Positions 3,530-63,495 of a stretch of DNA of 64,000 nt are shown here, piece by piece. The stretch comes from Phycisphaerales bacterium (GTDB taxonomy: Bacteria; Planctomycetota; Phycisphaerae; Phycisphaerales; SM1A02): NCBI GenBank assembly GCA_965227335.1, contig CBDDFV010000001.1, positions 771,627 to 835,626 on the forward strand. The letters run 5' to 3'. The notes under the pieces are model-generated. The model did not search any database. It was not told the DNA's origin and worked only from the letters and a program-made list of their open reading frames with translations. The stretch's first letter is position 1. Each line of letters begins with the position of its first letter. The position numbers were made by a program, and so were the translations under genes.

Positions 3530-4939
3530 TCAGGATCCGATCCCGACCGACACGATCTCCTTGACCCACCCGATCGACTCTTCGGTCGTATTGGTCCCCC
3601 CGATCGACATCCGGATCACGTACCGCCCGTCCACCCTCGCGTGACTCAGGTACACCCGTCCCGACTCGTTCAACGTCCGGTGCAACGCCTCTGTCGCGGC
3701 GTCGCCGTCGCGATGGGAGAAACACACCAGGTTCAGCGGCGGGTCCTTCAGCAATTCCAGATGCGGCTGCTCCCGCACCCACGCCGCGAAGTCCTGCGTC
3801 AGGCCCACATGCTCGCGCACGCGCTCGCGCAAACCTTCGACGCCGTAGTGCCGGATCACGAACCACAGCTTCAGCGCCCGGAACCGGCGCCCCAGCGGCA
3901 CGTGCCAGTCGCGATAGTCGAAGACGTCGCCCGCGAGCGTCGCGTCGTTCTTGAGATACTCCGGGAGGATCGAAAGCGTGCGGATCAGGGCCGCGCGATC
4001 GGCGACGTAGAACGCATCGCAGTCGAAGTTCGTGAACATCCACTTGTGCGGGTTGAAGCAGTAGCTGTCGGCGAGCTCCACGCCGTCCTGCAGATGACGA
4101 AACTCCGGACACAACGCCGCCGTGCCGCTCATCGCCGCGTCGACGTGCAGCCAGATGTCGCGCCGCCGACACAATTCGCCGATCGGACGCACCGGGTCCA
4201 TGCCGTTCGACGCCGTGGTCCCGACCGTCGCCCCCACGAAGAACGGGATGCACCCCGCCCGGCGGTCCGCCTCGATCGCGGCCCGCAACGCACTGACGTC
4301 CATGCCCTGCTGGCCATCCACGGGAATCAGCCGCAGGAACTGCCGGCCCAGACCCGCGATCATCATCGCCTTCTCGACCGATGAGTGCGCCTCGACCGAG
4401 GTGTAGGCGGTCATGCGGCGGGTCCCCGCCCCGGACTGATTCACCGTCCAGTCCGTCGCCCGCTCCCGCGCGGCGAGCAACGCGCACAGACTCGCGCTCG
4501 ACGCCGTGTCCTGAATCACCCCGCCGCCCTTGCCGCTCGAAAGGAACGTCTCCGGCAGCCCGAGCATCCCGACCAGCCAGTCGAGCACGTGCGTCTCGAC
4601 CTCCGTGCATGCGGGGCTCGTCTGCCAGAGCATGCCCTGGACGCCGAGACCCGCCGCGAGCAGCTCGCCGAGAATCGCCGGCCCCGACGTGTTCGCCGGG
4701 AAGAACGCGAAGAACCCGGGGTGCTGCCAGTGCGTGAGCCCCGGCATGACGACGTCCTCGATGTCGCGCAGCATCGCGTCGAACGATTCGCCCGTCACGG
4801 GCGGACGCTTCGGCAGCGCGGCCCGAACCTGTCCGGGCTGCACCTCCGACAGCACGCGGCGTTCGCCGACCGTTTCGAGATAGTCGGCGATCCAGTCGAT
4901 CATGGCGCGGCCGCGCCGACGGAACTCGTCCGCCGACAT
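3530..4939 (-). CDS. pyridoxal-dependent aromatic-L-amino-acid/tyrosine decarboxylase family protein
   Basis: Homology-like sequence begins at MSADEFRRRG (ATG 4939), not at the 593-aa track start. Group II decarboxylase motifs HWQHPGFFAFFP and GGGVIQDTASSA, and the PLP lysine in FNPHKW. Confidence 0.85.
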   Translation of the reverse strand: MSADEFRRRGRAMIDWIADYLETVGERRVLSEVQPGQVRAALPKRPPVTGESFDAMLRDIEDVVMPGLTHWQHPGFFAFFPANTSGPAILGELLAAGLGVQGMLWQTSPACTEVETHVLDWLVGMLGLPETFLSSGKGGGVIQDTASSASLCALLAARERATDWTVNQSGAGTRRMTAYTSVEAHSSVEKAMMIAGLGRQFLRLIPVDGQQGMDVSALRAAIEADRRAGCIPFFVGATVGTTASNGMDPVRPIGELCRRRDIWLHVDAAMSGTAALCPEFRHLQDGVELADSYCFNPHKWMFTNFDCDAFYVADRAALIRTLSILPEYLKNDATLAGDVFDYRDWHVPLGRRFRALKLWFVIRHYGVEGLRERVREHVGLTQDFAAWVREQPHLELLKDPPLNLVCFSHRDGDAATEALHRTLNESGRVYLSHARVDGRYVIRMSIGGTNTTEESIGWVKEIVSVGIGS

Positions 4940-4968
4940 GTGCGCGCCGGGCTGGGCGTCCGGCGTCG

Positions 4969-6672
4969 TCACGCGGGAAGCGTCTCGAGTTGCGCCCGCA
5001 CGGCCGTCATGAGCGTCGCCATTGTCGCGGCGCCGAAATCGAACTTGAGGTCCGCCGCCTCGAACAGCTCCGGCAGCGGACGCGAGCCGCCCAGCCGCAT
5101 CGCCCGGCGGTAGTTCTCGAACGCCTGCTGTTCGTCCTGCAGCGACTGCAGCCACAACTGCACCGCCCCGAGCTGCGCGATGCCGTACTCGATGTAGTAG
5201 AAGGGCACGACGAAGATGTGCAGCTGCCGGTGCCAGCTGTGAGCGCGATACGGCTCGAGCCCGTCCCAGCTCGCGGACGTCCCGAACCGCTCCTGCAGAT
5301 GCTCCCAGCACTGCCGCCGTTCCTCCCGCGAATGCCCGACGTTGGTGTAGATCCAGTGCTGAAACGCGTCGACGGTCGACGTCCAGGCGAACAGCCGCGG
5401 CAGATCCTCCAGCGCCTGTCGCTTCGCCCGGGCCGCCTCCGCGTCGTCGTAGAACGCGCTGAAATACGGCTGGGCGAGCAGCTCCATGCTCATCGACGCG
5501 ACTTCCGCGAACTCGATCGGGGCGTGCCGGTAGTGCAGCAGCGGTTCATGCTGCGACAGGATCGAATGGAACGCGTGGCCCGCCTCGTGGATCATCGTTT
5601 CGAGATCCCGGTGCATGCCCGAGGCGTTCATGAAGATGAACGGCGTCCGCTCGCGGTCGCGGGTCTCCTGGTACCCGCCCGGGGCCTTGCCCTTCCGCGA
5701 CACCAGATCCAGGCTGCGCCCGTCGCGCAGCGTGTCGAACATGGCGCCGAACTCGTTGTCCATGGCGCCGAACAGTTCGCTCGTCCGGGCCTCCAGTTCC
5801 TCGCCGCCGTCGAACGGACGCAGCGGCTCCCGACCGTGCACGTCGACGGCGAGGTCCCACGGTCGGAGCGGATCGACGCCGAGCATCGTCGCCCGCTGCC
5901 GCTCGAGATCGCGCAGCAACGGCACGCACACCTTCTCCGCCGCGTCGTGATACGCCTCGCAGTCGGCGGGACTGTAGTCGAACCGGTGTTTCGCCTTGAA
6001 CATGTAGTCGCGGAAGTTGTCGAAGCCGGCGTTGGTCGCCATCTCATGCCGCAGCGCGACCATGCGGTCGAAGATGTCGTTCATCCGGTCCGCATCCTGA
6101 TGACGCCGTTCCGCCACCAGCCGCCACGCCTCCTCCCGCGTGGCCCGGTCCGTCTCCTCCAGATGCCGGCCCATCTGCGGCAGCGTCTTTTCCTCGCCGC
6201 GGAACTCGACCGTCATCGCCCCGTTGATCTCGTCGTACTGCTGGCCGAGCTTCGTGTCCTCCGTCGAGAGCGGGATGTTCTCGGGGCGGAAGATCTCGAC
6301 GTCCGCCCGCAGGTCCCGCAGCATCACGTCGTACTTGCCGTTGAGACGGCTCGCGAACGGATGCTCCACGATCTTCCGGTCCAGCTCGAAGCCGACTTCC
6401 TTGAGCTTCGGCGCCGTGTTCTCCACGAAGTCGAGATACGCCCGCTTCCGGTCCTGATCGTCCGTCTGACACGTCATCGCGATGTACAGATTCGCGTGCG
6501 CCTCGTTCGCCGCCGCGTCGAGCTCGGACCGATCCAGAATCAGCTGCTCCAGCTCGTCCGCATCGCCGATCTCACGGTCGATGAGCGCGCGGTAATAGGA
6601 CTCCAGCGTCGACCATTGCGAACCGTCGAGATCCGCGGGAATGAAATGCGTCGGAATGGTGAACGTCGTCAT
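4969..6672 (-). CDS. pepF: M3 family oligoendopeptidase (PepF-like)
   Basis: 567 aa. Zinc motif MIHEAGHAFH with downstream EFAEVAS glutamate. GAGG SD 5 nt upstream. Only 29 nt from the downstream decarboxylase gene. Confidence 0.85.
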   Translation of the reverse strand: MTTFTIPTHFIPADLDGSQWSTLESYYRALIDREIGDADELEQLILDRSELDAAANEAHANLYIAMTCQTDDQDRKRAYLDFVENTAPKLKEVGFELDRKIVEHPFASRLNGKYDVMLRDLRADVEIFRPENIPLSTEDTKLGQQYDEINGAMTVEFRGEEKTLPQMGRHLEETDRATREEAWRLVAERRHQDADRMNDIFDRMVALRHEMATNAGFDNFRDYMFKAKHRFDYSPADCEAYHDAAEKVCVPLLRDLERQRATMLGVDPLRPWDLAVDVHGREPLRPFDGGEELEARTSELFGAMDNEFGAMFDTLRDGRSLDLVSRKGKAPGGYQETRDRERTPFIFMNASGMHRDLETMIHEAGHAFHSILSQHEPLLHYRHAPIEFAEVASMSMELLAQPYFSAFYDDAEAARAKRQALEDLPRLFAWTSTVDAFQHWIYTNVGHSREERRQCWEHLQERFGTSASWDGLEPYRAHSWHRQLHIFVVPFYYIEYGIAQLGAVQLWLQSLQDEQQAFENYRRAMRLGGSRPLPELFEAADLKFDFGAATMATLMTAVRAQLETLPA

Positions 6673-6744
6673 GGGGCCTCGCTCAGGCGGACCAGCGTCC
6701 GCAGGGATCGAAAGGAGAGAGCTTCGCGCGCGACCGGGTCCGGC

Positions 6745-7662
6745 TCAGGTCTGCGCATCGTGATGAATCGGGGTCTGGCCGATCGACGTCGCGGCGACGG
6801 CGGGCAGGTCGAGCCGCTCGACGATCGCCGCCGCGAGATGCGTCGCGTGCAACTCGTCGTCGCACAGCACGAACAGGGAGGCGCCGCTGCCGGACAGCGC
6901 GGCGGGACGCTCCGCCAGCGCCGACACGTCCTTCAACGCCGCGCCGATCGCCGGCGCCGTCTCGATCGCGGCGTCGGTGAGATCGTTGAACAGCCCGTCC
7001 GGACGCACCACGCCGTTCGACCGCACCCGCAGGGCGTGGACGAGGTCAGGATTCAGCGTCGTGCCGCCGAGTTCGTCGTAGCCGCGATACACGTCGCCGG
7101 TCGGGCACGCGGCGTCGGGGAAGACCAGCGCCGCGTACACCTGCGGCGCCTCATCGTGCGGCTCGATCGCGTCGCCCCGCCCCTCGACCGTCGCCGCTCC
7201 GCCCCGGATCAGAAACGGCACATCCGAGCCGAGGCCGGCGCCGACGCCGCGCAGTTCATCCTCGCTCAGGCCGAGATCGTAGAGGGCGTTGACCGCCCGC
7301 AGCATCGCCGCGGCGTCGGAGGAGCCGCCGCCCAGGCCGCCGCCGACGGGGATGCGTTTTTCGAGCTTGAGCTGGACCGGCAGCTTGCGATCGACGAGAT
7401 CCTCGAGCGCCAGGTGGGCCCGCACCGCGAGATCGCTGGTGATGGACCAGTCGATTTCGCTCCGCCGGGGCGCCTCCTCGTGCCACAGGATCGCGTAACG
7501 CGAGAAGTAGTCCTCGGGGAGCCGCCGGACTTCGAGATCATCAAACAACGTCACCGTCTGCATCCAGGAGCAGATCGGGTGCAGGCCGTCGTCCTCGGGC
7601 GGCCCGACGGAGAGGGCGAGATTCAGCTTGGCGGGCGCCTGGAGACGCACAACATCGGTCAT
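6745..7662 (-). CDS. ispE: 4-(cytidine 5'-diphospho)-2-C-methyl-D-erythritol kinase
   Basis: GHMP kinase. N-terminal APAKLNLAL and ATP loop PVGGGLGGGSSDAAA. ATG 7662 (MTDVVRLQAPAKLNL) preferred over the TTG at 7701 used by the ORF track. Confidence 0.85.
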   Translation of the reverse strand: MTDVVRLQAPAKLNLALSVGPPEDDGLHPICSWMQTVTLFDDLEVRRLPEDYFSRYAILWHEEAPRRSEIDWSITSDLAVRAHLALEDLVDRKLPVQLKLEKRIPVGGGLGGGSSDAAAMLRAVNALYDLGLSEDELRGVGAGLGSDVPFLIRGGAATVEGRGDAIEPHDEAPQVYAALVFPDAACPTGDVYRGYDELGGTTLNPDLVHALRVRSNGVVRPDGLFNDLTDAAIETAPAIGAALKDVSALAERPAALSGSGASLFVLCDDELHATHLAAAIVERLDLPAVAATSIGQTPIHHDAQT

Positions 7663-34447: not shown

Positions 34448-35368
34448 TCACGCCTCCGAAAAGTCATGCCCCGCCATGTACCGGCCCGTCTCCTGCTTCA
34501 GGATCTGGCGAAGCAGGTCGTTGAGCAGACTCGAGGCGCCGAATCGGAAGAGATCGGGCGTCAGCCACTCCGGACCCAGCGTTTCCTGCACCATCACCAG
34601 GTAGTGCAGCGCGGGCTTCGCCGCCCGGATGCCGCCCGCCGGCTTCATGCCAATCTTCACGCCCGTCGCCCGGTGGTGATCGCGGATCGCCTCCAGCATG
34701 ATCAGCGTCACCGGCATCGTCGCCGCCGGCGACACCTTCCCCGTCGACGTCTTGATGAACACCGCCCCGTCCTCGATCGGGCCCTGCGACGCCGCCGCCT
34801 CGATCGCCAGATCCGATGCGCGGCGGACGTTGTCGTAGGTCTCCAGCTCCCCCGTCTCCAGAATGATCTTCAGATGCGCCGACCCGCACGCCGCGCGGAT
34901 CTCCCGAATCTCCGCCGCGACCTCGCCGTACCGACCCGCGAGGAACGCCCCTCGGTTGATGACCATGTCGATCTCGTCGGCGCCCGCTTCAACGGCCTCC
35001 TGGACATCGCGGAGGCGGACGTCGAGCGGGAACTGTCCGCTCGGGAACGCGGTCGCCACCGACGCGATCTTCACCGATGAACCTTCCAGCGCATCCTTCG
35101 CGATCGGCACGAGGTTGGGATAGACGCAGATCGCGGCGACCGACGGCAGCGGGGGCTCGAGGTCGCCGTCGTACGGCCGGACGCCCTTGCGGCAGAGCGC
35201 CCGGACCTTCTCCGGCGAGTCCTTGCCTTCGAGGGTGGTGAGGTCGACCATCGAGATGGCGAGACGGAGCCCGGCCCGCTTGGAGTCGGTCTTGATCGAG
35301 CGCGTGGTGAACGACGCCGCGCGGCGGTCGGTCATGACGGCGTCGACGGTGCGTCGGGGGCGGGTCAT
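34448..35368 (-). CDS. deoC: deoxyribose-phosphate aldolase (long form)
   Basis: DLTTLEG, DEIDMVINRG and Schiff-base lysine in VFIKTSTGKV. ATG overlaps the upstream stop (ATGA). Confidence 0.9.
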   Translation of the reverse strand: MTRPRRTVDAVMTDRRAASFTTRSIKTDSKRAGLRLAISMVDLTTLEGKDSPEKVRALCRKGVRPYDGDLEPPLPSVAAICVYPNLVPIAKDALEGSSVKIASVATAFPSGQFPLDVRLRDVQEAVEAGADEIDMVINRGAFLAGRYGEVAAEIREIRAACGSAHLKIILETGELETYDNVRRASDLAIEAAASQGPIEDGAVFIKTSTGKVSPAATMPVTLIMLEAIRDHHRATGVKIGMKPAGGIRAAKPALHYLVMVQETLGPEWLTPDLFRFGASSLLNDLLRQILKQETGRYMAGHDFSEA

Positions 35369-36210
35369 GATTCAAGTGTAGCGTCGGACGTCGTCGACGC
35401 CTTTGTCCACCGCATCGCCTCGTCGATCTCGCGTCCGCACTCGGGGCACGCATCGCCTTCGAGTTTGTACACCGGATACCCGCACGGACAGCGGGGCTCC
35501 TCGATTTCGACGGCGATTCGGAGACGACACGATGAGCAGTGTCCGACGCCGGTCCTGACCGTCTGCGTCGCGCCGCAGCGGGGACACGTCAGTTCGACGC
35601 GGATCTTCCCGCCCAGCGCCACCCGTTCGTCCTTGTGCTTCAGCCACTCCACGAGGGCGAGCACGGGCGTCACCACCGTGCCGCACGCGCCGAGGATCGA
35701 GGCGACCGCGAGCGTGCGTTGGTAGAGTTCGTCCCAGTCGTCGACGAGGTCTTCGTCGATGATGAGCACCATGACGAGGGCCGCGACCAGCCCCGCGAAG
35801 CCCAGCGTCGCCACGCGGATCACGCGGGCGTAGTGCACCCGCAGGGGCGGCAGGATCATCAGGCCCCAGTGCGTCGCCCACAGGCTGATCACGGTGCCCG
35901 CCGCGGCGCATCGCACGACGGTCTCCTCGTGGCTCCATCCGAAGACCCGCCAGATCGCGAGGAGCCACACCGCCAGTGAGGCCAGCGACATCACGATCCC
36001 CAGCCACATCAGCGGGACCGCGCGTCGCCGCTCGAGCACGATCGCACACGCGAGGCACGGCAGGCTGAACAGGCCCACGTTCAGCGACGTCAGAATGAGA
36101 CGCTCGGTCTGCGATCCCAGCCCGCCGAAGATCACCGCCGCGACGCCCAGCAGGGCGGCGAGCGCCAGCGAGATCACCATCCCCCACAGGAAAGCCGTCT
36201 TGAGCGTCAT
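35365..36210 (-). CDS. polytopic membrane protein with C-terminal multi-CxxC zinc-ribbon
   Basis: 281 aa. About 6 hydrophobic helices, then CPRCG...CSSC...CPCGYPVYKLEGDACPECG. ATG 36210 lies 6 nt after a TAGAAT box. Confidence 0.65.
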   Translation of the reverse strand: MTLKTAFLWGMVISLALAALLGVAAVIFGGLGSQTERLILTSLNVGLFSLPCLACAIVLERRRAVPLMWLGIVMSLASLAVWLLAIWRVFGWSHEETVVRCAAAGTVISLWATHWGLMILPPLRVHYARVIRVATLGFAGLVAALVMVLIIDEDLVDDWDELYQRTLAVASILGACGTVVTPVLALVEWLKHKDERVALGGKIRVELTCPRCGATQTVRTGVGHCSSCRLRIAVEIEEPRCPCGYPVYKLEGDACPECGREIDEAMRWTKASTTSDATLES

Positions 36211-53243: not shown

Positions 53244-53469
53244 GCCGTCCGCCTACCATTTCCCTGATCCTCGGTGCGGGTCCCGCGGCTGGTGTCGGCC
53301 GCGGTTCTCGGACCCGCCTGCGAATGCCGTCCGCCGCGGCGTATCCTCCCGACTTCATGGTCGATTGATGCGCCGGTCGTGGTAGGCTGAGCGAGGAGCA
53401 CGACATCGCGTGTGTGGTCGGGACGGCGACGTCCGCGCGACCGCGCCGTCGACCGCAGGAGAACGAAAG

Positions 53470-55074
53470 ATGCTGGATTTCACACGTCAATTCCGCCGGC
53501 TCGCCACGCTCGGCGGTCTGTCGCTGGCGTTCGGGGCGGGCGCCGCGGCGCTGGCCGGCGACAACCCGGACCTTGAGGCGATCGGCTACTACGACCTCGT
53601 CGAGCGTCTCGGCGAAGGGAACGTCCCGACCGGGGCCGGCGTGATCGTCGGACAGGTCGAGGCCAACGAAGGCGCCAATTACGGACCCAACCAGGGGGCG
53701 GGCGATTTCGCGGGCAAGACGTTCATCGCCGAGAGCGGCGCGCCGGGGACGTCCGGTCACGCGACGACAGTCGCGAAGAACTTCTACGGTCTGTTCGACT
53801 CCGCCGCGCCGGATGTCGACACGATCCACCTCTGGTCCGCCGTGGGCTGGATCTTCAGCTTCCTCGGCGCGACGAACGGGGCCGAGACCTTCCCGCCGGA
53901 CCAGCCGCCGGCGGGTCTGCGCATCTTCAACGGCAGCTGGATCGGCGACCTCGACTCCGCCCCGTTCAACAACAGCGCGCTTCGACGCGCGGACCGGGTC
54001 GTGGAGCTGTCCGACGTCCTGATCATCAACGGCGTGAACAACGCCGCGGGCGCGGGGGACAACCTGCCGCTCATGAGCCACATCTACAACGGCCTGGCCG
54101 TCGGCAAGATGAACGGCGCCCACCAGGCCAACGCCACCGGGAACGGCGTCGACGGGCCCGGCCGACAGAAGCCGGAGATCGTCGCCCCCGGCGCCGCCAC
54201 CAGCTGGGCCACGCCCATCGTCAGCGCCGTGGGCGCGGTGCTGTACGAAACGGCCGAGACCGACCCCGCCCTCGTGGGCAACGACAACGCCGATCGCTCC
54301 GCCGTCATCCGCGCCATCCTCATGGCGTCGGCGGTGCACCGCGACGGCTGGACGAACAACCCGATCAGCAGCGGCTCGGGGCGCGGCGTCACCACCACTC
54401 CGCTCGACGATGTCTACGGCGCCGACCTCGTCAACATCGACCGCGCTCACCTCACCCACACCGCGGGCGAGCAGGACGGCGCGACCGATCCCGCGTCCGC
54501 TCCGACCATCGACGAGGCGGGCTGGGACTTCGAATCGCTCGGCTACGGCGAAAGCCGCTTCTACGCGTTCGAGATCACCGAACCGACCGACGACTTCTCC
54601 GTCGTCGCGACGTGGAACCGACGCATCCGTCTCAGCCAGGGTCTCGTCACCGTCGGCGATTTCGATCTGTATCTCTGGGAAGTCGACGGCGACGGCGAAC
54701 TCGTGTCGCTCGTCGGCGACGGCGGGCTCGACAACTTCGACGAGGGCGCCGTCGTCTCCATCAGCCCGATCAACAACATCGAACATCTGTACGTCAACGG
54801 CCTGCAGCCCGGGTCGTACATGATCGAACTGCGGCGCATCGATGAGACGTCGATCTATCCGACCTTCGACGCCGGTCTCGCGTGGATCTTCCCGGAGCAG
54901 CCTGACGCGGGCGATCCCGCGGACCTCAACGGCGACGGCGGCGTCGGCGCCGCGGACCTCGCGATCCTGCTCGGCTCGTGGGGCCCGTGCGAAGGCTGCC
55001 CGGCCGATCTCGACGGCGACGGCGTGGTCGGGGCGGGCGACCTCGCGATCCTGCTCGGCGCGTGGACCGGCTGA
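53470..55074 (+). CDS. subtilisin-like (S8-like) serine peptidase with C-terminal twin dockerin-like module
   Basis: AGGAG SD. Signal-like N-terminus. His motif TSGHATTVA and Ser motif GAATSWATPIVSAVG. Ends in DLNGDGGVGAADLAILLGSWGPCEGCPADLDGDGVVGAGDLAILLGAWTG. Confidence 0.7.
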   Translation: MLDFTRQFRRLATLGGLSLAFGAGAAALAGDNPDLEAIGYYDLVERLGEGNVPTGAGVIVGQVEANEGANYGPNQGAGDFAGKTFIAESGAPGTSGHATTVAKNFYGLFDSAAPDVDTIHLWSAVGWIFSFLGATNGAETFPPDQPPAGLRIFNGSWIGDLDSAPFNNSALRRADRVVELSDVLIINGVNNAAGAGDNLPLMSHIYNGLAVGKMNGAHQANATGNGVDGPGRQKPEIVAPGAATSWATPIVSAVGAVLYETAETDPALVGNDNADRSAVIRAILMASAVHRDGWTNNPISSGSGRGVTTTPLDDVYGADLVNIDRAHLTHTAGEQDGATDPASAPTIDEAGWDFESLGYGESRFYAFEITEPTDDFSVVATWNRRIRLSQGLVTVGDFDLYLWEVDGDGELVSLVGDGGLDNFDEGAVVSISPINNIEHLYVNGLQPGSYMIELRRIDETSIYPTFDAGLAWIFPEQPDAGDPADLNGDGGVGAADLAILLGSWGPCEGCPADLDGDGVVGAGDLAILLGAWTG

Positions 55075-58320: not shown

Positions 58321-58348
58321 GTCCGGCCGACCCCCGCGGATCCGATCC

Positions 58349-58388
58349 GGGCCGTCGTCTCCCCGTGAGACGGCGGCCCGTTTTCGTT
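58349..58388 (+). terminator. rho-independent terminator between convergent genes
   Basis: GGGCCGTCGTCTC / GAGACGGCGGCCC (13 bp, one G-U), loop CCCGT, then GTTTTCGTT. Confidence 0.75.
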
Positions 58389-59290
58389 CACGCCCGCGTG
58401 GTCGCGCGTCGTGTGTCCGTGGTCGGCGGGTCGAGTCCATCGCACAGCCAGAGCAGGGCCAGCCCGCTCCGCAGGCGGGGCGGCAGCAGGAGCCGCAGCA
58501 CGAGCCGGGCGAGGGGACGACCGATCAGCATCCCGAGGTAGAGCCACGTCATCTGGGCGACGAACTCGACCACCAACAGATGCGACGCCCAGACCCCCCG
58601 CAGGTGCCACACACTCGTGGGCGACTGCGTTCGGGCCGCCCAGTCGACGAACGCAAAGCTCGAGAACGCCGCCGCGATCGCCGCGATGATCGCGACCGAC
58701 GCCAGCAGCCCCCGCCACTTCCGATGGAACAGCACCGTCCCGAGCACGAGCCCGCTGACGAGCATCAGGAACCACGACACGCCCATGAAGAAGAAGTCCT
58801 CGGGATCCGCCACCCGCCACCATGCGGGCGATTCCGCCCGCAACTGAGCCGGGTTCGTGGTCTGCCACCACGCCTGAAACGCCTGCCCGCCGCTCAGGTC
58901 CGGCGCGTTCGTTTCGATCCACGCCTCGATCCGATTACTGACGTCGTCCTGGTAGTTCCGGGAAACCTGTTCAGTGAAGGCGATGTTGAAGCCGGTGGTG
59001 ACGCCCGCGGTCCCCGTGAAGAGCGCGATCACGACCGCGAACCAGAACGCCGCCGCGAGCATGCCGATCCGTCCCGCCCATTTGCCGAGCAGGGGGTACT
59101 CCTGCGTCGCCGCCACCGCGCCGCACTCGGGACAGCGGACCACGAAGAGGCCGTAGTGCGGCTCCCGGCGAATCGTCTGGCCGATCAGGTTGTAGTTGCA
59201 CTCGATGCAGAGGCGGTCGCCCTGGAGCAGGCCGCGCGGCGAATCGTCGTGTTGATCCGCCGTCGGCGACGGCGACGTGGTGTCGGTCAT
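58388..59290 (-). CDS. zinc-ribbon (CxxC...CPECG) polytopic membrane protein, paralog 2
   Basis: 300 aa from ATG 59290 (ATGA overlap with the upstream paralog, GGAG 10 nt upstream). CIECNYNLIGQTIRREPHYGLFVVRCPECG followed by about 5 hydrophobic helices. Confidence 0.65.
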   Translation of the reverse strand: MTDTTSPSPTADQHDDSPRGLLQGDRLCIECNYNLIGQTIRREPHYGLFVVRCPECGAVAATQEYPLLGKWAGRIGMLAAAFWFAVVIALFTGTAGVTTGFNIAFTEQVSRNYQDDVSNRIEAWIETNAPDLSGGQAFQAWWQTTNPAQLRAESPAWWRVADPEDFFFMGVSWFLMLVSGLVLGTVLFHRKWRGLLASVAIIAAIAAAFSSFAFVDWAARTQSPTSVWHLRGVWASHLLVVEFVAQMTWLYLGMLIGRPLARLVLRLLLPPRLRSGLALLWLCDGLDPPTTDTRRATTRA

Positions 59291-59985
59291 TCGGAGGTCT
59301 CCAGACGATGCGCAATGCGCACGCTGACGGGAAGATGCGAGGCGCGCACGCGTCGGATGAAACGCAGCCGCAACCGCCGCGCAATCCAGCCCTGCACGAT
59401 CTGCCCCAGCCACCCGAGCGGGACGCCGAGCAGCATGACGGGCAGCGTGAGGGCGAGGGAGAAGAGTGATTTGCCGAGCCACTCCGCCGCGCGTCCGGGC
59501 CGGAACGCCCCGCCGTAGCGGGTCATCTCGATCTCGGCGATCAGCCACGCGAGTCCGAGCCCGATGATGACGAGTCCGAACCACGCGGTCCACGGGGCCC
59601 ACCGGCGCCGCCAGTGGGGGAACGCCGCGCTCAGCCACGCCCCCGCGATGAACGGCGCGATCAGGTATCCGATGGTCGCGAGCACATACTCCGGTCCTTC
59701 GAGGCGGAAGCCGTTGCGGCTGATGAAGCGGACGATCGCGGCGTGGAACGTCGAGGTGAACGCCACGGACGCGATCAGCATGAAGAGCTGGAGTTCGAGC
59801 ACCTGTGAGGAATGAAGAAAGCGGATCGCCTGGCGACGCATCTCGACGAGCGGATGGGTCCGACGCACCGCCGCCCGCCCGCACCGCGGACAGGTCACCA
59901 GCGGCAGTCCGTAGCGCGGCTCCCGCTTCGGGCGATGGGGGGCCAGGTCGTAGCCGCAGGATTGACAGAGATGGGACAGCCGCAT
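59287..59985 (-). CDS. zinc-ribbon (CxxC...CPRCG) polytopic membrane protein, paralog 1
   Basis: 232 aa from ATG 59985 (AGGAG 4 nt upstream). CQSCGYDLAPHRPKREPRYGLPLVTCPRCG followed by about 5 hydrophobic helices. Confidence 0.65.
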   Translation of the reverse strand: MRLSHLCQSCGYDLAPHRPKREPRYGLPLVTCPRCGRAAVRRTHPLVEMRRQAIRFLHSSQVLELQLFMLIASVAFTSTFHAAIVRFISRNGFRLEGPEYVLATIGYLIAPFIAGAWLSAAFPHWRRRWAPWTAWFGLVIIGLGLAWLIAEIEMTRYGGAFRPGRAAEWLGKSLFSLALTLPVMLLGVPLGWLGQIVQGWIARRLRLRFIRRVRASHLPVSVRIAHRLETSE

Positions 59986-60201
59986 GCGGCTCCTGACGTA
60001 AGCTCGTCGCGCCGTGGCGGCCGGCCGGCCGCACCCTCGCGTGTGGACCATTGTCGCGAAGGACGCGTGATCCGCTACTCGACTGGTACGGAAGGGGGCG
60101 CGGCGTCTTTCAGCCCGGCGACACCTTGTCCGACGCCGCTGCCCGAACGATACTGACGGCGGTCCGGAACGGCACGATCACACAGCATTCGGGGTTCGTC
60201 C

Positions 60202-61725
60202 ATGATTACGGTTCTGTTGGCCGTCACGGGAGTCATCGCCCCGGTGATGCTCATCGCCGGCTGGCGGGGCCGGCGGGTCGGGGATGAGCCGCGCTGCCGA
60301 CGCTGCCGCTACGACCTCTCCGGCCGGTCCGATCCCGACCGCTGCCCCGAGTGCGGGGCGAATCTCACGGAGCCCCGCGCCGTCGTCGTCGGCCTCCGGC
60401 GCCGACGTCCGGCGGTCATATCGATCGGCCTCCTCCTCCTCCTGGCGGGCGGCTCGACGATCGGCGTCCGGTCATACGTCGCCAGCCGGAACCTCGACTG
60501 GCGATCGTTCGCGCCGGTCAGCGTGCTCGTCTTCATCGGGGAGTGGGGCGATGCGGCCGCCGCGGCGGAACTGATGAATCGGACCTCCGTCAACACCGCC
60601 GGACCGTTCGGCGAACTCTCCGACACGCAGGGCGATCGTGTGATTCAGATGCTGCTCCGCGTGCAGGGCGACGCGAGCGTGGCGTGGACGCGAGAGTGGC
60701 AGGAACTCGCCGGCGTGTTGTTGCCGATTGATGCGTGGGATCCGGCGGACCTGCGTCGGTTCTACGAACAGGGGGTTTCGATCGTCATTCAGACGCCGCC
60801 TCGCGTCCATGCGGACTCCGAGTTCACCGAATGGAGACGTCGCGCTGGAGGGCGCTCGTGGTCGCCGCGGCCCGGCGGGTCCCGAACCGATGGCCCGTTG
60901 CTCGTCGAGGTCGAGCGGACGGACGTGCAGGTCGACGGAAGAGAAATCCGGTCGTGGAGTTCGTCCACCGCTTCTTTCCCGGAGGCCGGCCAATCCAGCG
61001 GGAGCGGTACGCGGTATCGCGCAGCGCAACTGGTTCCCGACGGCGGTCCGGGCGTCCGGACGGTGACCGTCACCCGACGGGTTCGTGTTGGCGTTGCGAA
61101 CGCCGACGGCTGGGGACTCGCGGATCCGCCCCGTGCGGAGTGGACGCGCGAGGATGTCTTCGTGATGGAGATCGTCCCGAACGACGTCGAGTTGGTCACG
61201 GCGGTCCCGGCCGCGGCCTGTCCGAAGCTCCTGGACACGTTGCGGGTCGGTCCCGTGCGATTCCAGGGCGGCGAGCCGCTGGTTCCCCGTGGTTCGGTCA
61301 TGATCGACAACGTCGGCATCGAGGCCGGACTTGCGGTCACCGTGAGCGTGCGTTTCGCGGGTCAGACATCCGTCGTCAACGAGAGTCTCGCGCTCTGGAT
61401 CGATCCGGGGTCGATCGCAGACGCCCACTCCTGGGGCGTCACCAACAGCGGAAGGTTCTTTTCCGACGACCCCGACGCGGCGGCGTTCGCCCGCACGCTG
61501 CTCGAGCACGCCGAAGCGGGGGGAACGGTCGATCTCATCCTGACGCCGAATCCTGACGCCGCGCTCCTCGAGCCCGGTATGACTCAGATGGTCGGCGACA
61601 CCCTCATCTTTCGCGGCGTTCCCGTTCTGCCCCCGCCGCTCCCCGGCGAATCATCGCCGTACGTCCCCGACGAAGATCGGATCCGGGCCGAGGTCCTGGA
61701 GGACGAGGACGCCCCCGCGCCCTGA
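60202..61725 (+). CDS. zinc-ribbon (CxxC...CPECG) membrane protein with a large extracytoplasmic domain
   Basis: 507 aa. TM1 (ITVLLAVTGVIAPVMLIAGW), CRRCRYDLSGRSDPDRCPECG, TM2 (VISIGLLLLLAGGSTIG), then about 400 aa with no recognised motif. Confidence 0.6.
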   Translation: MITVLLAVTGVIAPVMLIAGWRGRRVGDEPRCRRCRYDLSGRSDPDRCPECGANLTEPRAVVVGLRRRRPAVISIGLLLLLAGGSTIGVRSYVASRNLDWRSFAPVSVLVFIGEWGDAAAAAELMNRTSVNTAGPFGELSDTQGDRVIQMLLRVQGDASVAWTREWQELAGVLLPIDAWDPADLRRFYEQGVSIVIQTPPRVHADSEFTEWRRRAGGRSWSPRPGGSRTDGPLLVEVERTDVQVDGREIRSWSSSTASFPEAGQSSGSGTRYRAAQLVPDGGPGVRTVTVTRRVRVGVANADGWGLADPPRAEWTREDVFVMEIVPNDVELVTAVPAAACPKLLDTLRVGPVRFQGGEPLVPRGSVMIDNVGIEAGLAVTVSVRFAGQTSVVNESLALWIDPGSIADAHSWGVTNSGRFFSDDPDAAAFARTLLEHAEAGGTVDLILTPNPDAALLEPGMTQMVGDTLIFRGVPVLPPPLPGESSPYVPDEDRIRAEVLEDEDAPAP

Positions 61726-61764: not shown

Positions 61765-63495
61765 ATGCGCGAGACCGCCCGCTCCAGCCACCCCGTTCTC
61801 CTGTTCAGCCTGCTCGCGGTGCTCGGGCTGACGCTCGTCTATCCCATCGGGCTGACCGTCTGGGGCGGGTTCGAGAGCGTCGACGGCGGGTTCACGCTCC
61901 ACCACATCATCGCGATCTTCCGCGACCCCACCCTCCTCGCCGGGCTCGTCAACGCTCTGCTGATCGCGGTGCTGACGACGTTCCTCTGCTTCGTGATCGC
62001 CCTCCCCCTCGCCGTGCTCAACGCCCGGTGCGAGTTCCCCGGGAAGAAGATCTTCGGCGCCCTTGTCCTCGTCCCGCTCATCCTCCCGCCATTCGTCGGG
62101 GCGATCGGCCTGCACCACCTGCTGGGCCGTGCGGGTTCGATCAACACCGCCCTCCTCGACCTCGGCCTCGTCGGCGAGCCGATCGACTTCATCGGGCGGG
62201 GCGGGCTCTGGGCGATCGTGCTCATCGAGGCCCTGCATCTCTATCCGATCCTCTACCTGAACGCGACCGCCGCTCTCGCCAACCTCGATCCCGCCCTCGA
62301 GGAAGCCGCCGAGAACCTCGGCGCCTCGCGGAGCCGGCGATTCTTCTCGATCGTGCTCCCGCTGATCCGCCCCGGCCTGTTCGCCGGGGCGACGATCGTC
62401 TTCATCTGGTCGTTCACCGAACTCGGCACGCCGCTGATGTTCGACTTTCAGACGGTGACGCCGGTGCAGATCTTCAACGGGCTGAAGGAGATTGACACCG
62501 CCGCGCAACCGTACGCGTTGACCGTCGTCATGCTCACGATGGCGATCGTGATCTACGTCCTCGGGAAGCTCGCGTTTGGACGCGAGGCGCACGCGATGTA
62601 CTCGAAGGCGTCGGTGCAGTCGTCGACCGTGAAGCTCGCCCCGGTCCCGGCCCTGCTGGCGACCCTGGCGTTCCTTGTCGTCACCGCGCTCGCGATCAGT
62701 CCCCACCTCGGCGTCGTGCTCACCTCGATCTCGAAGACGGGCTACTGGTACGAATCGATTCTGCCCACCGGCTACACCGCGGAGCACTACCTCGGCGCGC
62801 TCTCGCACGACCTCGCCGGGGCCTCCATCCGCAACTCGCTCTTCTTCGCCGGATCCGCCGTCGCCATCGACATCGGGCTCGGACTCCTCATCGCCTACCT
62901 CGTCGTCCGCACCCGCACGCCGGGGCGCGGCGTCCTCGACGCCCTCGCCATGCTGCCCCTCGCCGTCCCCGGACTCGTCATGGCGTTCGGCTACGTCGCC
63001 GTCACCCTCCAGTGGCCCTTCGGCAAGGGACATCCCCTCGAAGGCGTCCTCGACATCATCGGCCCCGAACCCAACCCCGCCCCGCTTCTGATCATCGCCT
63101 ACGCCGTCCGCCGACTGCCCTATGTCGTCCGCGCCGCCGCGGCCGGCCTCCAGCAGACCTCCAGCGAACTCGAGGAAGCGGCCCAGAACCTCGGCGCGAC
63201 CAAGACCTACGCCGTGCGCACGATCGTCGTCCCGCTCATCGCGGCGAACCTCATCGCCGGCGGCCTCCTGGCCTTCAGCTTCGCCATGCTCGAGGTCTCC
63301 GACTCCCTGATCCTCGCCCAGCGGGAATCCGACTTCCCCATCACCAAGGCCATCTACATCCTCTTCTACCGCCTCGGCGACGGCGAGCACATCGCCTCCG
63401 CCCTCGGCGTGTGGGGCATGGTGCTGCTGATGGTGACGCTGATCGGGGCGTCCGCCGTGATGGGGCGACGCATGGGCGCGATTTTCAGAGTCTGA
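61765..63495 (+). CDS. ABC transporter permease, duplicated (FbpB/ThiP-like two-module) type
   Basis: 576 aa, about 12 TM. Two EAA loops (LEEAAENLGASRSRRFFSIVLPLIRPG and LEEAAQNLGATKTYAVRTIVVPLIAAN). Confidence 0.85.
   Translation: MRETARSSHPVLLFSLLAVLGLTLVYPIGLTVWGGFESVDGGFTLHHIIAIFRDPTLLAGLVNALLIAVLTTFLCFVIALPLAVLNARCEFPGKKIFGALVLVPLILPPFVGAIGLHHLLGRAGSINTALLDLGLVGEPIDFIGRGGLWAIVLIEALHLYPILYLNATAALANLDPALEEAAENLGASRSRRFFSIVLPLIRPGLFAGATIVFIWSFTELGTPLMFDFQTVTPVQIFNGLKEIDTAAQPYALTVVMLTMAIVIYVLGKLAFGREAHAMYSKASVQSSTVKLAPVPALLATLAFLVVTALAISPHLGVVLTSISKTGYWYESILPTGYTAEHYLGALSHDLAGASIRNSLFFAGSAVAIDIGLGLLIAYLVVRTRTPGRGVLDALAMLPLAVPGLVMAFGYVAVTLQWPFGKGHPLEGVLDIIGPEPNPAPLLIIAYAVRRLPYVVRAAAAGLQQTSSELEEAAQNLGATKTYAVRTIVVPLIAANLIAGGLLAFSFAMLEVSDSLILAQRESDFPITKAIYILFYRLGDGEHIASALGVWGMVLLMVTLIGASAVMGRRMGAIFRV

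Follow-up and report, generated by a model that had tools for sequence, protein, structure and literature searches.

A LetA module combines a zinc ribbon in the cytoplasm with a domain of four transmembrane (TM) helices; two such modules occur, either fused or encoded by adjacent genes, and in LetA the dimerised ribbons join the two four-TM halves (PMC13017536). LetA/PqiA proteins (PF04403), the inner-membrane component of MCE lipid transport, have been described from Proteobacteria. The membrane proteins GltJ of Myxococcus and ZitP of Caulobacter use their N-terminal cytoplasmic ribbon to dock MglB or PopZ (PMC11135422), and Arv1, a eukaryotic lipid-trafficking protein of the endoplasmic reticulum, has a cytosolic zinc ribbon at its N terminus, ahead of TM helices (PMC4631934). 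Here we describe two overlapping genes, P1 and P2, in a 64,000-nucleotide (nt) stretch of a Phycisphaerales bacterium (GCA_965227335.1, contig CBDDFV010000001.1, positions 771,627 to 835,626; hereafter the window), whose products likewise follow the plan of a ribbon plus four TM helices, twice over, in adjacent genes. We find that they form a conserved, translationally coupled pair of paralogs outside the known families, and we tentatively favor a reading in which P1 and P2 would build an inner-membrane complex of two obligate subunits, specific to Phycisphaerales, that serves as a docking or organizing platform for a cytoplasmic partner. Two further ribbon-bearing membrane proteins of the window, P3 and P4, are considered alongside them (Table 1).

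The original prediction held that P1 and P2 are tandem paralogs, and this was borne out both by BLASTP, which aligns the first 91 amino acids (aa) only (E 7e-14), and by hhalign of the two family profiles, which extends from the ribbon through TM4 (99.4%, E 1.6e-21, 210 columns). Judged by these alignments, P1 and P2 are full-length paralogs. The ATGA overlap reported for their junction is present in the DNA (...tccgaATGAccgac...), and a stop/start overlap of this kind implies translational coupling. A word-indexed search with P2 returned 32 homologs, all labeled 'hypothetical' and all from metagenome-assembled genomes (MAGs) of Phycisphaerales, while the same search with P1 found no homolog besides P1 itself; the P1 family was therefore assembled through synteny, upstream of the P2 homologs. 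Each P2 homolog contig that we examined carried, directly upstream, a gene of 180-256 aa with a P1-type ribbon and a 4-8 nt overlap.

Scanning one genome per GTDB species yielded 60 loci, which by record title comprise 54 MAGs of the class Phycisphaerae, Planctomycetota or Planctomycetia, five Isosphaeraceae and one 'uncultured bacterium'. Pairing was counted over the 54 loci, window included, that have at least 900 nt of upstream DNA. By motif, a P1-type open reading frame (ORF) was found in 51 of these 54 (50 of the 53 others), and hidden Markov model (HMM) searches recovered one more in locus L005 as well as, in L064, a divergent paralog in tandem. A paralog thus lies directly upstream of the P2 homolog in 52 of the 53 other loci and L058 is the sole singleton. 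In L064 (4169-5723) the P2 model outscores the P1 model on both paralogs. The P1-P2 junction is a 4-nt overlap in 40/51 pairs and a 1-nt overlap (TGATG) in 4/51. When the P2 profile was searched exhaustively with HMMER, 999 clusters (50% identity) scored E<=1e-3 and 511 of these reached E<=1e-30; the family members sampled were unnamed or annotated 'hypothetical protein [Phycisphaerales bacterium]'. The original prediction would have fallen had the ORFs lacked conservation in related genomes; instead, we observed that they are strongly conserved.

All four ORFs are present where they had been placed and carry the sequences quoted for them. Their GC content at third codon positions (GC3) is 0.82-0.90 and that of the window as a whole is 67.8%, which agrees with real coding genes in a 68% GC genome; spurious ORFs were ruled out by this high GC3 together with 30-44% protein identity across more than 50 genomes. 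Members of the P1 family begin with the pattern M..AH.C, with a Cys at residue 7, supporting a P1 start at 59985. The ribbon motif claimed for P1, P2 and P3, and the ribbon claimed for P4, occur far above shuffle expectation. In the six-frame translation of the window, C..C.[YF].[LVIM]...CP.C matched three times, only in P1, P2 and P3 (0 matches in 100 dinucleotide shuffles), and C..C...CP.CG matched four times, with P4 joining P1-P3 (shuffle mean 0.01).

The two Cys-x2-Cys knuckles on beta-hairpins that define a C4 ribbon can be recognized in both families, with all four cysteines invariant in the alignments and the second knuckle written as C-x-C in three P1-family members. The spacer between the knuckles is exactly 21 residues in 51/51 P1-family and 51/51 P2-family proteins (102/102 in total). 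About five hydrophobic helices had been proposed for each protein; we count four TM helices in each, from hydropathy and, for P2, from an AlphaFold2 (AF2) model. Hydropathy and charge place both termini of P1 and P2 in the cytoplasm. The hydropathy layout of P1 is a ribbon at residues 1-55, TM helices at approximately 65-88, 100-123, 130-156 and 169-197, and a basic tail, and that of P2 is a ribbon at 23-74, TM1, an acidic periplasmic loop of ~60 aa, TM2, an HRKWRG loop, TM3, TM4 and a basic tail. AF2 modeled P2 with confidence (pLDDT 87, pTM 0.79), placing helices at 70-128, 163-186, 192-221 and 227-268. The strands of this model, at 39-42, 49-52 and 59-61, flank the ribbon knuckles, the remainder being helical, and the first two form an extra hairpin from the insert R-E/D-P-x-Y-G-L-x-x-V. 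Cys4 zinc sites require a reducing cytoplasm. Given this, the basic segments that follow the ribbons and the N-in topology, the ribbons, which are predicted Cys4 zinc-binding modules, are cytoplasmic, as had been proposed.

Column conservation in P2 is highest in the ribbon and its linker (0.76), followed by the cytoplasmic C-tail (0.64) and the TM2-TM3 loop (0.48), with values of 0.32-0.45 in the TM helices and 0.20-0.33 in the periplasmic loops. In P1, the ribbon and linker reach 0.55 and the TM2-TM3 loop 0.45, with 0.28-0.33 in the TM helices, 0.25 in the cytoplasmic C-tail and 0.20-0.22 in the periplasmic loops. The conserved ribbon block of P2 reads GDRLC..CG[FY]NL.GQ..RE..Y...VRCPECG....EYPLLG.W., and in its C-tail R258, R262, L280, W281 and P289 are invariant and L269-P270-P271-R272 almost invariant. 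Invariant residues of the P1 family are H5, C7, C10, C32 and C35, together with His124 at the cytoplasmic end of TM2. In the periplasmic loop of P2, whose length ranges from ~50 to over 150 residues, only a WW..QD....GG patch is retained, and neither alignment holds a conserved charged residue within the membrane.

These observations shape the reading that we favor. Ancient P1/P2 paralogs would have been kept as overlapping, coupled genes so that their products are made in equal amounts, and the two would assemble, most likely, as a pseudo-symmetric heterodimer with eight TM helices and two ribbons. The ribbons would lie side by side beneath the membrane, an arrangement for which the dimerised ribbons of LetA are a precedent, and, with the P2 C-tail, present a conserved cytoplasmic surface, while the eight helices would mainly anchor the complex. 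We infer both the heterodimerization and the docking role. Constraint falls on the cytoplasmic parts (the ribbons, the His-x-Arg loop after TM2, the P2 tail and the P1 tail), which makes a docking platform most likely, and the TM and periplasmic parts drift without conserved charges, which makes an enzyme or an ion-coupled transporter less likely than such a platform. The anchoring role suggested in the original prediction is plausible for the same reason, namely that conservation is concentrated on the side facing the cytoplasm.

Several observations weigh against this reading. Conservation of the cytoplasmic face would equally fit a regulated transporter or a signaling protein. One locus, L058 (4971-5816), has a single divergent P2-like gene without a partner, and another, L031 (3233-5906), has three tandem paralogs of P1, intermediate and P2 type, so stoichiometry is not fixed everywhere. 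The gene neighborhood likewise gave no functional hint or partner across ~60 loci. Clustering of all flanking ORFs at these loci revealed no third conserved gene beside the pair; the next-best cluster, EamA, occurs at 10 of ~60, and others are cyclophilin, GH15, LepA and PurD, indicating that the neighborhoods consist of unrelated housekeeping genes. An anti-phage defense role was rejected on the same housekeeping neighborhoods and on PADLOC, which returned 0 families for P1-P4 at E<=0.1.

The original prediction could assign the ribbon-plus-membrane architecture to no named family, and for P1 and P2 this holds across Pfam, NCBIfam, PADLOC and searches of PDB sequences and folds. Pfam and NCBIfam gave the window proteins only sub-threshold matches to generic ribbons (~12-15 bits against cut-offs of ~27), and Pfam run singly on 31 P2-family and 20 P1-family members found nothing for the membrane domain. 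The weak generic matches in the P2 family were to Zn_ribbon_3 (PF13248; 22/31) and DZR (PF12773; 21/31), which resemble it in having two CxxC/CPxCG knuckles but are silent on the membrane domain and on the conserved 21-residue hairpin insert. Clean P1 and P2 profiles matched nothing among PDB sequences below E 0.26; an additional 752 PDB matches obtained with a P1-linker-P2 alignment were discarded, as all were to the artificial GGGGS linker. By Foldseek, no structure in the PDB (entries to April 2026; best E 1.3) or in a viral library matched the P2 model at E<=0.001, with the caveat that Foldseek is weak on helical bundles and that the PDB comparison covers the best 50 of 176 weak matches. 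We found no paper on this family in the literature on this ribbon in Planctomycetes or Phycisphaera. The order of ribbon and then TM helices is shared with DUF983 and Arv1, and DUF983 gives a weak match (E 0.007) to two members of the P1 family; however, there is no significant similarity to either, the number of TM helices differs, both are unpaired and Arv1 is eukaryotic. GltJ and ZitP, like P1-P2, are membrane proteins whose N terminus bears a cytoplasmic C4 ribbon, and they offer the docking mechanism proposed here, but they are single-pass rather than four-TM proteins, are unpaired and carry other domains (GYF, DUF3426), and neither NCBIfam nor Pfam matched P1 or P2 to their ribbon families.

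The alternative that survives best is that the pair is a functional analog of split LetA/PqiA, or else a relative that has diverged extremely far, moving lipids or other hydrophobic molecules from the inner membrane. Module build and gene arrangement do correspond (PMC13017536), and in both groups the second knuckle is CP.C and a basic stretch, RRR.H/N.(P/S)L, lies between it and TM1. The P1-family ribbon aligns with the E. coli PqiA/LetA ribbons by hhalign (91%, 35 columns), yet across the E. coli modules such alignments were limited to 27-35 cysteine-rich ribbon columns and never entered the TM domain, and PF04403 gave 0 matches at E<=10 in the 51 family proteins. The constant 21-residue spacer lies outside the 11-18 of the LetA/PqiA definition (10-16 in the E. 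coli proteins). The LetA TM domain is tetraspanin/claudin-like with a periplasmic beta-sheet, whereas the periplasmic region of the P2 model is helical, and no LetA chain was present among the best 50 of the 176 Foldseek matches. The TM helices of P1 and P2 show poor conservation and no conserved polar residues, no MCE-domain gene was found among the annotated neighbor clusters shared at ~60 loci, nor any other conserved partner adjoining the pair, and the pair is found in Phycisphaerales MAGs rather than in Proteobacteria. As all tests of homology failed, we leave the pair outside LetA/PqiA: the build is alike, the relationship is not demonstrable, and we consider a LetA-like function unlikely.

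Zinc ribbons often bind nucleic acids, and the pair could accordingly tether nucleic acid or ribosomes to the membrane through its ribbons and the polybasic C-tail of P1, a possibility that is close to one raised in the original prediction and to which we give little credence. The last 30 residues of P1 have a family median of 37% Lys+Arg and 3% Asp+Glu, which is the only hint of nucleic-acid binding in the pair itself, and polybasic membrane-adjacent tails are also explained by the positive-inside rule and by binding of anionic lipids. Some loci lie beside lepA, dnaN or aspS-like genes, but inconsistently, and translation or replication genes are not a consistent feature of the neighborhoods. 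Pfam and NCBIfam showed no above-threshold similarity to any nucleic-acid-binding ribbon family.

It is also quite improbable that the pair is a transmembrane signaling device or anti-sigma-like regulator, in which the P2 loop would sense a periplasmic or membrane signal and thereby alter the sequestration of a cytoplasmic regulator by the ribbons. Such a role could draw on the ~60-aa periplasmic loop with its conserved patch, on an extracytoplasmic-function (ECF) sigma gene 7 kb away in the window, and on the invariant H-x-C-x2-C of P1, which loosely recalls the H-x3-C-x2-C of zinc anti-sigma (ZAS/zf-HC2) factors. Those factors, however, have an adjacent ECF sigma gene, whereas the genes conserved beside the pair include none for a sigma factor, kinase or regulator; no zf-HC2 or other anti-sigma Pfam match was found in the window proteins or family members, and the loop is the least conserved part of the protein and variable in length.

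P3 is divergently transcribed from P1 across a gap that is indeed 216 nt long, as claimed; no sigma-70 consensus was found in this region, by a scan that is uninformative for Planctomycetota. The large extracytoplasmic domain attributed to P3, following a ribbon between two TM helices, was confirmed as a ~410-aa periplasmic domain. P3 belongs to a small family of its own, in which six homologs conserve TM1, a ribbon of the form C-x2-C-x12-CPECG, an RRRRP stretch and TM2, with a variable periplasmic domain. The P3 ribbon-plus-TM module aligned with the P2 family by hhalign (96.6%, E 5e-10, 56 columns), and the last ribbon of P4 with the P3 family (93.6%, 27 columns) and the P2 family (24%), scores that are inflated by short cysteine-rich alignments. 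The ribbons of P4 are C-terminal, after its TM helices, an architecture unlike that of P1 and P2. A short ribbon, C..CGY[DN]L.G..CPECG, recurs in at least six other unrelated membrane ORFs of the flanks, approximately one per 90 kb, always right after a TM helix and an Arg-rich stretch and in several cases at the extreme C-terminus. By this pattern the short ribbon appears to be a promiscuous, lineage-expanded membrane-adjacent module and the only element that P3 and P4 share with the pair, and given its recurrence in unrelated ORFs, the adjacency of P3 to the pair is best treated as coincidental. That P1, P2 and P3, with P4, form one functional set, an idea that goes back to the 'cluster of three' in the original prediction and draws on the divergent position of P3 and its profile similarity to P2, is highly improbable and largely refuted by synteny, since three P3-homolog loci lie in unrelated neighborhoods without P1 or P2 genes, the ~60 pair loci have no P3-family gene, a short ribbon at such density is unremarkable beside the pair, and P4 lies 22 kb away, overlapping deoC instead.

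Additional observations concern P3, P4 and the surrounding genes. The AF2 model of P3 is poor (pLDDT 54), and its Foldseek matches (IL-6R, RbmA, FimC, LacZ Ig-like domains; best E 1.6e-3, TM-score 0.12) indicate at most beta-sandwich content and were left unused. Locus L068 has two tandem P3-family genes (3801-4997 and 5369-6820), the second apparently split into a 180-aa TM-ribbon-TM ORF and a 289-aa periplasmic ORF. A two-domain ABC permease gene (BPD_transp_1, 576 aa; 61765-63495) starts 40 nt past the P3 stop on the same strand, making co-transcription with P3 possible; this neighbor is absent beside P3 homologs elsewhere. P4 overlaps the downstream deoC-like aldolase gene (34448-35368, PF01791) by ATGA at 35365-35368 and on that basis is probably co-translated with this sugar-phosphate aldolase, not with P1-P2. 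The tail-to-tail neighbor of P2 is, as stated in the original prediction, a metzincin (Met-zincin, PF16313, E 9e-74), an adjacency that is not conserved across the pair loci. A strong hairpin parts the Met-zincin stop (58320) from the P2 stop (58388) and is likely a terminator shared by the two genes. In two other loci, L001 (521-5239, GCA_043101845.1) and L002, the pair is immediately preceded by a gene for a 1572-aa protein that matches the Pfam families ABC_membrane, ABC_tran and Secretin in one product; by this domain content, an ABC exporter is unusually fused to an outer-membrane secretin domain. The product of another window gene (53410-55074), 554 aa long, looks secreted, lacks Pfam matches and ends in two dockerin-like repeats (DLNGDGGVGAADLAILLGSWG ... 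DLDGDGVVGAGDLAILLGAWTG).

Table 1. Features of the P1-P2 locus and of other ribbon-bearing ORFs. Positions are those of the window unless a locus label precedes them; for the short-ribbon ORFs they are those of the ribbon.
Feature	Position	Strand	Basis or remark
P1, 232 aa: N-terminal cytoplasmic C4 ribbon, four TM helices, polybasic C-tail	59287..59985	minus	translation, hydropathy
P1 predicted zinc ribbon, C7-x2-C10-x21-C32-P-x-C35, His5 ahead	59881..59967	minus	motif scan, alignment
P2, 300 aa: ribbon, TM1, ~60-aa helical periplasmic loop, TM2-TM4, conserved cytoplasmic C-tail	58388..59290	minus	
P2 predicted zinc ribbon, C28-x2-C31-x21-C53-P-E-C56	59123..59209	minus	motif scan, alignment, AF2 strands
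P2 cytoplasmic C-terminal motif GRP.AR...R.LLPPRLR..LA.LW..DG..PP, residues ~257-290	58421..58522	minus	alignment
ATGA overlap of P1 stop with P2 start	59287..59290	minus	DNA letters
Divergent P1-P3 intergenic region, 216 nt	59986..60201		presumed promoter region
GC-rich hairpin of 14 pairs, flanked by the stops of the convergent metzincin and P2 genes	58348..58380		likely terminator
P3, 507 aa: TM1, cytoplasmic short ribbon C32-x2-C35-x12-C48-P-E-C51-G, TM2, ~410-aa periplasmic domain	60202..61725	plus	
P4, 281 aa: polytopic membrane protein, C-terminal double zinc ribbon (CPRCG...C..C, C.CGY...CPECG)	35365..36210	minus	
Short-ribbon ORF	L007 1260-1316		
Short-ribbon ORF	L030 3825-3881		
Short-ribbon ORF	L033 2416-2487		
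Short-ribbon ORF	L042 3677-3748		
Short-ribbon ORF	L051 294-350		
Short-ribbon ORF	L058 3257-3313		

Collectively, P1 and P2 represent two uncharacterized families, accompanied by a recurrent membrane-adjacent ribbon module, none of these being modeled in Pfam or NCBIfam, and the fold predicted for P2 has no solved counterpart in our PDB search. The P1-P2 family is seen here only in MAGs of Phycisphaerales and other Planctomycetota. A LetA-like build without likeness in sequence or fold means either a very deep relative or convergence, and both cases would inform how zinc ribbons serve in assembling two-part membrane proteins. With no phenotype, partner or activity in hand, the pair is still an ordinary 'conserved hypothetical'. 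There is a small chance that P1-P2 would prove to be an unrecognized two-subunit machine, core to Phycisphaerales cells, with a fold absent from the PDB and a LetA-like build reached independently, and that the short ribbon could be a common tag plugging unrelated membrane proteins into one cytoplasmic organizing or localization system. The group to which Phycisphaerales belong divides without FtsZ, and to our knowledge the cell biology of Phycisphaerae, including the envelope, division and protein localization, is almost unexplored. A strictly paired, coupled and lineage-wide membrane complex would be a reasonable entry to it.

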